Assembly: GCA_000960865.2 (NCBI GenBank)
Contig: JZWU02000016.1
Coordinates: 1 to 32,977, forward strand
Length of the DNA: 32,977 bases
Direction: 5' to 3'
Source: Vulcanisaeta sp. AZ3
GTDB lineage: Archaea; Thermoproteota; Thermoprotei; Thermoproteales; Thermocladiaceae
The translations under genes and the position numbers were made by a program. Below the pieces are notes generated by a model. It was not told the DNA's origin. It searched no databases and saw nothing but the letters and a program-made list of their open reading frames with translations. Shown here in pieces: positions 21,529 to 23,183 of the stretch (its first letter is position 1; each line of letters begins with the position of its first letter).

Positions 21529-21655
21529 TGGTGGGCCCGCCGGGATTTGAACCCGGGATCTCCCGCGCACTTAGGTTATTGTTGGCGCGGTGCCTTGTAA
21601 GGCTTTCACGGGGCTTTTAACCCCTGGGCATCCTACCAGGCTAGACTACGGGCCC
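21529..21655 (-). tRNA. tRNA-Val(TAC) with two introns (29/30: 21625-21604, 22 nt; 37/38: 21595-21568, 28 nt), CCA encoded
   Basis: Removing both introns gives a 77-nt cloverleaf: GGGCCCG...CCCGC CTTACAC GCGGG AGATC CCGGG TTCAAAT CCCGG CGGGCCC A CCA. The 37/38 intron has a BHB central helix CTTA/TAAG. Confidence 0.9.
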
Positions 21656-21676
21656 AGGGATTCCTTGACTTTCATG

Positions 21677-21691
21677 GTTTTTATGCTTTTC
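21677..21691 (-). promoter_or_regulatory. BRE-TATA promoter of tRNA-Val
   Basis: Minus strand GAAAAGCATAAAAAC, ~25-35 nt upstream of the tRNA. Confidence 0.6.
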
Positions 21692-21804
21692 TTTATTGGC
21701 TCGTTAAGCGCATCCTGTCTATACTACTTTAGTTAACTATATTTCACGTTAACGGATATGGGGTCTTTTTATGTTTATTAATTAATCTGGGGGTATGCGA
21801 ATGA

Positions 21805-21820
21805 GAAAAGCCTTAAAAAT
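21805..21820 (+). promoter_or_regulatory. BRE-TATA promoter of initiator tRNA-Met
   Basis: GAAAAGCCTTAAAAAT, ~25-35 nt upstream of the tRNA. Confidence 0.65.
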
Positions 21821-21841
21821 GAGGTAGTGAAAATCAAGCCC

Positions 21842-21938
21842 AGCGGGGTAGGGTAGCCAGGTAGCCTGCGGGGCTCATAACCCCGAGGTCCCCGGTTCAA
21901 ATCCGGGCCCCATCCCGTTAAGGGAGGCTAAGCTACCA
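21842..21938 (+). tRNA. Initiator tRNA-Met(CAT) with a 20-nt intron in the acceptor stem (69/70; 21912-21931), CCA encoded
   Basis: A1-U72 pair, GGG/CCC anticodon stem, CTCATAA loop, TTCAAAT T-loop. The 3' acceptor strand CCCC|GCT ACCA is interrupted by ATCCCGTTAAGGGAGGCTAA. Confidence 0.92.
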
Positions 21939-21992
21939 GATGATGGCCCCGCACCAATTCTTATTGGGATTTTACTTTTATTTCAGAATGTC

Positions 21993-23183
21993 TTGAGCTT
22001 ATCAATGCTTGTGCTGATTGTCTTTGGGTTGTTGATCTTGGTTACTGCCTTATTAGCCTCCTTACTATCTTTAATTTTTGAAGCTAGGTTTTGGAATACC
22101 CTACCTCGTATGCGACTTGTTGCTTCTACGTTTCCTAGCGTGACTGTGATTATGCCCCTTAGGGGATTGGATCAAAATTTAAGGGATAATCTACTTAGTG
22201 TTCTTGATCAGGATTATCCTGGCCATAGGAGGTATGTTTTTGTTGTTGATAGTGATACTGACCCGGCCTACTCTGTGGTTAATGAGATTCTTAACCACGT
22301 TAATGTCGATGCATTAGTAATAATTAACAAGAGTGGTCGAGGCAAGGGTGATGCCTTAGCCGCCGGGCTTTCTAGGGCTGTTGGTGATGTTGCGGTCTTT
22401 GTTGATAGTGATGCCTATGTTCACAGGCACTGGCTTAGGAATTTAATTACTCATCTCCTTAATGGTTCTGGCGCGTCCACGACATATAGGTTTTACCTAC
22501 CCCTAAGGCATCTTAACCTCGGTACTTTACTTAGGGCAAGCTTTAATATGATTGGTTTTACAGCAATGCAAAATTCAACGGCTAGGTTTACGTGGGGAGG
22601 TTCCTCCGCAGTCTGGTCTTGGCTTATTAATAAATACTCAATACATTATTACCTACCACACTACCTAAGTGATGATTACGTAGTGACTCACTTCGTACAT
22701 AAGGAGGGCTTACCCATAGCATTTACACCTGAATCTCTAGTACTCACCTACGAGGATGCTGATATTAAGGAGGCCTTCTCCTGGGCCGTTAGGCAGTTGT
22801 GGTATGTCAGGGTTTATGGTTTTAATGGTTTCCTACTATATGCTGTCTCTTACACTCTATACGTAATTACCCTGCCATTAGCCATCACCCTATTCCTACT
22901 AAGCCTCAACCCCTGGTTCTTACTCCTCGGTCTCTTACCGTTTCTTTTTGGCGTAATCAAGGATTATATTAGGATCAACAGTATTAGAGGTCTAGATGAA
23001 TTCTACCGTGAGAGAATTAGTAAAGGGTTCGTAATTCTCCTGGCATTTACATCAATAATCAATGTATACTTCTCCTGGCTTGTCATAATTAAGACTATGT
23101 TTACTAGGAGTATTAATTGGCGCGGCCGCGTGTTCACTATTGATGATGCAATTAAGTTAATGAGAGAGAAACCCCTGAGGTGA
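21993..23183 (+). CDS. Membrane GT2/GT21-like glycosyltransferase (ceramide glucosyltransferase/HpnI-like)
   Basis: PSVTVIMPLRGLD, DQDYP, FVDSD (DxD), WGGS, LSDD, RQLWY; N- and C-terminal TM helices. Confidence 0.85.
   Translation: MSLSMLVLIVFGLLILVTALLASLLSLIFEARFWNTLPRMRLVASTFPSVTVIMPLRGLDQNLRDNLLSVLDQDYPGHRRYVFVVDSDTDPAYSVVNEILNHVNVDALVIINKSGRGKGDALAAGLSRAVGDVAVFVDSDAYVHRHWLRNLITHLLNGSGASTTYRFYLPLRHLNLGTLLRASFNMIGFTAMQNSTARFTWGGSSAVWSWLINKYSIHYYLPHYLSDDYVVTHFVHKEGLPIAFTPESLVLTYEDADIKEAFSWAVRQLWYVRVYGFNGFLLYAVSYTLYVITLPLAITLFLLSLNPWFLLLGLLPFLFGVIKDYIRINSIRGLDEFYRERISKGFVILLAFTSIINVYFSWLVIIKTMFTRSINWRGRVFTIDDAIKLMREKPLR

Follow-up and report, generated by a model that had tools for sequence, protein, structure and literature searches.

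The current analysis identifies what is probably a working, and apparently single-copy, initiator tRNA-Met gene in the hot-spring archaeon Vulcanisaeta sp. AZ3, whose acceptor stem is interrupted in its 3' strand, between tRNA positions 69 and 70, by a protein-spliced archaeal intron that appears to be a lineage-specific gain. The window, by which we mean the whole stretch of DNA that was analysed, comprises 32,977 nt and corresponds to contig C16 of the assembly; the gene occupies 21842-21938 of its forward strand, reads as a tRNA with the anticodon CAU, and has the letters given for it in the first-pass annotation. As far as its sequence allows it to be judged, the intron is of an ordinary kind, archaeal and protein-spliced, and stands in an extraordinary place, while the gene displays all of the sequence-level signs of function. 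Two of its features appear to be new: an intron that interrupts the acceptor stem on its 3' side, of which we found no other case, and a putative second copy of the tRNA 3' end, now decayed, that lies downstream of the gene.

Exon 1 (21842-21911, +; 70 nt) supplies tRNA positions 1-69, i.e. the 5' acceptor strand, the D arm, the anticodon arm with CAU, the variable loop, the T arm and C66-C69, and exon 2 (21932-21938, +) contributes just 7 nt, namely G70, C71, U72, the discriminator A73 and an encoded CCA, which is likewise encoded in most tRNA genes of this genome. The 20 nt between them (21912-21931, +) consist of an A, a 4-bp hairpin with the loop GUUAA, the tetranucleotide GGCU and a final AA. 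The first-pass annotation had proposed that the cloverleaf is whole only once these 20 nt are removed, and this is borne out: their removal joins CCCC (21908-21911) to GCUACCA and restores a 7-bp acceptor stem, AGCGGGG/CCCCGCU, along with A1-U72, the discriminator A and the CCA end. When all cut pairs were tried by script, a single solution yielded the mature sequence, a 70-nt exon 1 followed by a 20-nt insert. One extra D-loop base accounts for the offset in numbering, which places the insert at 69/70, where it separates pair 4:69 from pair 3:70 of the acceptor stem. A 15-nt alternative intron, cut before the first GCUAA, was considered and rejected, as its 3' cut would fall in no bulge and the junction test permits only the 70/20 division. 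It had also been anticipated that tRNA scanners might miss or mis-call such a gene, and both general scanners indeed place its 3' end wrongly, within the insert: ARAGORN reports tRNA-Met(cat) at 21842-21916, and the Rfam tRNA model ends at 21915 (21842-21915, 48.1 bits) with two acceptor pairs marked as non-standard.

The hallmarks of archaeal initiator tRNAs are an A1-U72 pair, a discriminator A73 and three G-C pairs at 29-31/39-41. ARAGORN and Rfam both place CAU at the anticodon position, the anticodon stem CGGGG/CCCCG contains the three G-C pairs (G29-G31 with C39-C41), and A1-U72 and A73 are present only once the insert is removed, all of which agrees with the initiator identity originally assigned to the gene. 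In the available portion of PMC8450103, A1:U72 is likewise named as an initiator feature. Furthermore, the available part of the tRNAscan-SE 2.0 supplement includes a Thermosphaera aggregans gene typed iMet at 95.9 bits, from which the spliced sequence, compared by eye, differs only in compensated D-stem and T-stem pairs.

The copy number of the gene has to be judged from a fragmented, metagenome-type assembly (1.51 Mb in 55 contigs, 41.8% G+C, 89.85% complete). The only other CAU tRNA found in it is an elongator (C46:891-988), which starts with GGGCCCG and has an intron of its own, and the only other tRNA with A1-U72 (C26:9442-9563) has the anticodon CUG. Queried at the DNA level with the entire gene, the genome gave three matches, and those listed comprise the gene itself and a partial match to the elongator. 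The first-pass annotation had asked whether the genome holds another tRNA-iMet; in this assembly of approximately 90% completeness, no second initiator-like gene was found by ARAGORN, by Rfam or among the listed matches of the DNA search. The CUG tRNA on C26 is Gln-like, although ARAGORN labels it Pyl, and it has a 46-nt intron after position 38. Within that intron, the 5' part of the gene recurs in decayed form, with an anticodon-arm-like stretch that reads UUG rather than CUG.

The archaeal splicing endonuclease cuts after the second base of a bulge, and the exon-intron junctions can be folded into the bulge-helix-bulge motif that the first-pass annotation described. In this fold, a central helix of 4 bp, three of them Watson-Crick and one G-U, pairs GGCC of exon 1 (21906-21909, +; G64 and G65 of the T stem with C66 and C67 of the acceptor stem) with GGCU of the intron (21926-21929, +). 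It is bordered by two bulges of 3 nt, CC^A at 21910-21912 and AA^G at 21930-21932 (both +; the caret marks the predicted cut, 21911/21912 and 21931/21932 respectively), and the intron closes upon itself in a UCCC/GGGA hairpin (21913-21916 with 21922-21925, +). The two further details of the original description hold as well: each predicted cut follows the second base of its 3-nt bulge, and the motif draws upon bases of both the T stem (G64, G65) and the acceptor stem (C66-C69). With the junction fixed, only 30 of 200,000 mononucleotide shuffles of the insert produced a 4-bp central helix together with a hairpin of at least 4 bp in register, and the same geometry was reached by 33 of 200,000 random 20-mers at the GC content of the genome. 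The overall layout, in which an exonic NN^A is followed by a hairpin, four pairing bases and AA^G, matches that of the 21-nt introns which this genome carries at approximately 29/30. A generic motif scan proved too permissive (3,796 matches in 220,000 nt of random genomic 110-mers) and was used only for the layout of known introns.

In the available portions of PMC4090602 and of a preprint (10.64898/2026.10.13.758758), the motif is defined as two 3-nt bulges around a 4-bp helix, each bulge being cut once. The strict form, hBHBh', is not what is found here, as h' measures 4 bp and h, beside the 3' cut, a single pair (G63-C71). The motif is one of the relaxed HBh' class, which is also used by non-canonical introns according to the same portion of PMC4090602. 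Thermodynamically, the motif is disfavoured: its conformer is predicted at -24.8 kcal/mol, a cloverleaf from which the insert bulges at -32.5 kcal/mol, and neither of the two is the minimum-energy fold of the 97-mer (-43.6 kcal/mol), while the pairing probability of the central helix was 0.001-0.07 in all four partition-function runs. A minor conformer is what the enzyme would have to capture.

The genome encodes machinery that should suit such a substrate. The alpha subunit of its splicing endonuclease (192 aa; contig C41, positions 1207-1785 of locus L031) has both Pfam domains, its best solved relative being chain B of the heterotetramer 2zyz (E 8e-60), while the beta subunit (124 aa; contig C39, positions 35-409 of locus L032) has only the C-terminal domain and matches chain A of the same structure (E 4e-8); the pair represents the two-subunit form of the enzyme. 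An open frame of 492 aa encodes the RtcB ligase. According to the available portion of PMC5829648, only the two-subunit and epsilon2 forms of the endonuclease cut non-canonical introns, and on that substrate range the host would possess the type of enzyme expected to accept relaxed motifs, plus a ligase. Expression signals are similarly in order. A putative promoter at 21803-21819 (+) consists of an A-rich element and a TTAAAAA box, which starts at 21813, 29 nt upstream of the tRNA 5' end (-29), in the same place as the boxes of the elongator Met gene and other tRNA genes; overall, 21 of the 33 Rfam-called tRNA genes of the genome have a TTAAA, TTTAA or TATAA whose first base falls between -45 and -24. 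Archaeal transcription terminates at T-runs, and the likely stop is provided by TTTT, TTTT and TTT at 21970-21983 (+), which would leave exon 2 as well as the trailer element described below inside the expected primary transcript.

Additional support is available from independent DNA. Contigs from four DNA runs were compared with the window, of which X1 may be the source sample and X2 and X3 belong to another study. Record 15 of X2 (1494 nt) covers 21626-22400 with 22 other letters and four gaps, and record 20 of X3 (383 nt) covers 21676-22059; both include the insert, and no contig of the four runs joins across it. All 25 of the differences listed over 21626-22400 lie outside 21790-22028, an interval in which approximately eight would be expected at a uniform rate, and the intron is identical in both strains. 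Conservation thus extends jointly over the promoter, the two exons, the intron and the trailer; the intron by itself would be too short to show this. The contigs also touch upon a neighbouring tRNA gene (21529-21655, -), which is divergently transcribed. Rfam reports it at 43.4 bits with a 61-nt gap in the anticodon arm, whereas ARAGORN calls it Leu(aag) with a 48-nt intron, and it therefore probably has more than one intron. Among the contigs there are paralogues of this neighbour with the same exons and other inserts (joints 21560-21631 and 21560-21636, and replaced letters).

Matches to the initiator gene occur in all 40 of the relatives searched. Within the genus, alignments over bases 1-70 reach 100% identity in genome G012, 99% in G008 and 97% in G004, and each of them stops exactly at base 70, as the genes of these three genomes run straight on with GCTA. 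The predicted spliced product is thus letter for letter the uninterrupted initiator gene of G012, which scores 63.7 bits with all seven acceptor pairs, as opposed to 48.1 bits for the unspliced call. The loci of 29 relatives provided 27 complete initiator genes, one of the remaining two being split by a contig end and the other gene not being found. In all 27, the 3' acceptor strand is free of inserts and GCUA or a compensated equivalent has been kept. Eight of them do contain introns elsewhere, at 45/46 in G001, G002, G005 and G011 and in the anticodon loop in G025, G033, G038 and G039. Within a single genus, the initiator gene consequently exists with no intron, with an intron at 45/46 or, in the AZ3 genome only, with an intron at 69/70. 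The flanks cannot date the gain of the latter, since only the tRNA itself aligns with the same-genus genomes. Two of the initiator genes examined have peculiarities of their own: that of G002 also lacks two T-stem bases, and that of G003 has runs of seven G and seven C where its relatives have four, which looks like a homopolymer sequencing error.

An intron this close to the discriminator was considered very unusual in the first-pass annotation, and none of our surveys of the AZ3 genome, of relatives or of metagenomes revealed a second case. In the AZ3 genome, the 3' acceptor strand is uninterrupted in every tRNA with a recognisable T arm except for the initiator gene. A partner strand was found for 43 of the 56 T-arm-like sites, and only three of the 13 without a partner lie in tRNAs, these being the initiator gene and two Leu genes, for which the script had shifted the T-stem register by one base and inspection by eye shows a continuous strand. 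Among the Rfam-called tRNA genes of three complete relatives, to which this survey applies, an interrupted 3' acceptor strand was seen in none of 132 matches (43 in G008, 43 in G013 and 46 in G025). Seven end pairs are present in 122 of them, and the other ten, which were read individually, include three with 3/4 introns of the 5' strand, the rest being clipped alignments, other introns, a split-tRNA half and weak matches. The same genomes furnished two observations of a different nature. G025 has three tRNA genes (L055-L057; CTC, TTC and GTC by reading) with mutually similar introns of approximately 38 nt at position 3/4 of the 5' acceptor strand, and G013 has a free-standing tRNA 3' half (L061; G013:C1:597448-597506) with its own upstream TTTAAAAA box, which fits a split tRNA gene.

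Wider searches led to the same result. The exact exon context with any insert of 8-38 nt had no match in the JGI metagenomes. A broader initiator pattern, which recognises only genes with AGCGGGG, GTTCRAATCC, a CCA in the DNA and an insert placed from position 66 to position 70, and whose scan may not have included the window's own record, gave seven loci in 185,579 species genomes, all of them false, and 15 loci in the JGI metagenomes, all of them tRNAs with intact ends. Six of the seven were bacterial, and the seventh was an initiator gene from Sulfolobales whose end is intact and which by chance has GCTACCA downstream. The intron sequence is equally isolated: allowing up to four mismatches, it matches only itself in the AZ3 genome, and allowing up to three, it has nine matches in 62 genomes of the order, none of them in a tRNA. 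Our search of the printed literature found no archaeal 3'-strand acceptor-stem intron, and intron-position catalogues, which lay outside that search, may contain an entry. According to the methods text available for tRNAscan-SE 2.0, candidates are extended by 60 nt in order to catch introns close to either end.

The second peculiarity of the locus is found 8 nt downstream of the encoded CCA, where the trailer element GGCCCCGCACCA (21945-21956, +) has the appearance of a second, decayed version of the gene's final 13 nt in which U72 is missing. It aligns with the end of the mature gene, GGCCCCGCUACCA, with a score of 19, which was reached by two of 20,000 shuffled trailers; the best self-score in the 32 other tRNA genes is 16. 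Over 13 nt the trailer is also an exact match for the end of a Leu tRNA gene located on C20, which leaves the copy with more than one candidate source. Within the element, CCCCGC (21947-21952) is the exact complement of G2-G7. A trailer complement of at least 6 nt occurs in none of the 32 other tRNA genes and in 630 of 100,000 shuffles. Once the trailer is added, the 5' acceptor strand is paired with it in all minimum-energy folds (helix probability 0.85-1.0). With this helix in place, the predictions for 37 C put the splicing motif at -38.3 kcal/mol, more stable than the bulged cloverleaf (-32.5 kcal/mol) and slightly less so than a fold in which the T arm stays whole (-38.7 kcal/mol).

These properties raise the possibility, to which we would lend only tentative credence, that the trailer copy is at once the scar left when the intron came into being and a functional element of the precursor. 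The scar may record the insertion after C69 of approximately 39 nt that ended in a GGCCCC repeat and carried a new GCUACCA. In its functional role, the CCCCGC of the trailer may pair with G2-G7 and free C66-C69 for the splicing motif, and the trailer may also tether the 7-nt 3' exon to the body of the tRNA while cutting and joining proceed at high temperature. The duplicated 3' end indicates that this end of the gene has been rearranged, which would fit a damaged gene too.

Based upon these features, the following course of expression can be proposed. Transcription would begin at the gene's own promoter, pass exon 2 and end at the T-runs. The final two T-stem bases, together with C66-C69, would then leave the cloverleaf and enter the relaxed bulge-helix-bulge with the intron, whereupon the heterotetrameric (alpha-beta)2 endonuclease would cut after C69 and after the last A of the intron and RtcB would ligate C69 to G70. 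Until the exons are joined, the 7-bp acceptor stem with its A1-U72 pair could not assemble, nor could trimming of the 3' end expose the encoded CCA. Splicing would presumably precede both acceptor-stem folding and end maturation, as had been suggested from the bases that the motif employs.

Several other explanations of the locus deserve consideration. The gene could be a disabled copy, its acceptor stem broken by a 3' insertion and a local duplication, with a fortuitous fit to the splicing motif and with the working initiator residing in the unassembled tenth of the genome. We regard this as unlikely, even though the decayed second 3' end just downstream, an assembly that is 89.85% complete in 55 contigs, and a motif that is relaxed and disfavoured by folding would all suit it, as would the two initiator-like matches present in each of three sister-genus genomes (G015, G021 and G024). 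What speaks against a disabled copy is that its exons are 100% identical to the working orthologue of G012 and its promoter is intact, that the geometry of the motif arises in just 30 of 200,000 shuffles at the fixed junction, and that the allele is unchanged in a strain with 25 listed differences in the flanks. Nor does the AZ3 assembly contain a second initiator-like match, and the other 12 genomes of the genus are without a second full-length initiator among the matches listed.

Alternatively, the trailer rather than exon 2 might supply the 3' end. A 39-nt intron (21912-21950) would then be removed by means of a palindromic GGCC/GGCC helix and C69 joined to GCACCA, and it is true that GGCC at 21945-21948 can pair with the exonic GGCC at 21906-21909 to leave a CC^G bulge. 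However, no hairpin flanks the 5' bulge in that register, and the product would lack U72, place A1 opposite an A and lose the register of the CCA, whereas GCUA or its compensated equivalent is kept in 27 of 27 relatives; this makes the arrangement very improbable. We attach slightly less weight still to retention of the insert in the mature tRNA as an extra acceptor-stem hairpin. The bulged cloverleaf is more stable than the splicing conformer in isolation (-32.5 versus -24.8 kcal/mol), as such retention would prefer, but the insert adjoins A1-U72 and the CCA end, which are read by the synthetase and by initiation factor 2, it is absent from all 27 relatives, and we know of no initiator tRNA with an insert of this type. 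Least credible of all is an artefact of assembly or sequencing, despite the fragmented, metagenome-type assembly and the homopolymer errors in the initiator gene of G003, as the identical insert recurs in contigs from three runs, which represent two studies, and no contig links the exons without it. A working gene with a spliced 69/70 intron is therefore the explanation that we favour.

If this explanation is correct, the gene extends what is known of tRNA introns in the Thermoproteales, which occur at many positions; the acceptor-stem cases that we found, in genomes and in the portions of the literature available, all concern the 5' strand. With an intron at 69/70, just seven bases remain for the 3' exon of an essential and apparently single-copy gene, which raises the questions of how so short an exon and the tRNA body stay together at high temperature, and whether splicing must precede the end-processing enzymes that read the acceptor stem. 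It also raises the question of how well annotation tools recover such genes: this one is cut short by two general scanners, so that the organism may seem, when annotated automatically, to lack a proper initiator tRNA. Of the whole locus, the trailer element most deserves an experiment, and a duplicated 3' end beside an intron may bear on an open question.

When compared with other introns, the 69/70 intron combines familiar construction with a very rare location. The closest structural parallel in its own genome is the family of 21-nt introns at approximately 29/30 (C46:891-985, C42:8612-8743, C46:87-215, C36:10468-10563 and C8:30319-30414), the members of which are near-identical and consist of an A, a GGGGC hairpin, GCGU or GUGU and two further bases. 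In the first three of these, the boundaries and layout are those of the initiator intron, i.e. CC^A, a hairpin, four nucleotides that pair with the exon and AA^G. The family differs in that its copies are alike and lie in the anticodon stem of different tRNAs, which is the described pattern of intron transposition; transposed intron families of the Thermoproteales were reportedly the subject of work by Fujishima in 2010. Unlike this transposed-type family, the initiator intron has no relative in the tRNAs searched. The 45/46 intron of G001, G002, G005 and G011 resembles it in another manner, being located in the same gene within the same genus, having a similar length (19 nt) and sharing the same layout (exonic AG^A, a 4-bp hairpin, CGGG and AA^G). 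It is situated, however, in the variable loop, a commonly reported site, and its sequence is unrelated, so that the two introns represent separate gains.

With regard to position, the nearest counterparts are the acceptor-stem introns at 3/4 and 2/3 in Thermoproteales. An intron at 3/4 is called "an extreme case" in the available portion of PMC4090602, which cites Sugahara 2008, and the available part of the tRNAscan-SE 2.0 supplement lists one Glu gene with a 3/4 intron and two Pro genes whose intron is at 2/3. The genes designated "misposition" in that same part of the supplement were also considered as parallels and set aside, their introns being in the 5' strand or the D arm. Like the AZ3 intron, the 3/4 and 2/3 introns are protein-spliced, interrupt the acceptor stem, leave one very short exon and employ acceptor bases in their motif. 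They differ in belonging to the 5' strand, where the short exon comes first in the transcript, whereas the AZ3 intron belongs to the 3' strand and its short exon is the last 7 nt, with the discriminator and CCA. A precedent of a different sort is the initiator tRNA of Thermofilum pendens, which, according to the available portion of PMC3218864, is circularly permuted, single-copy and processed by the endonuclease at the non-canonical position 59/60. In the permuted Thermofilum pendens gene the 3' half precedes the 5' half, while the AZ3 gene would contain a simple intron at another position; on the evidence of that portion of PMC3218864, an essential tRNA nevertheless tolerates dependence upon non-canonical processing by the splicing endonuclease.
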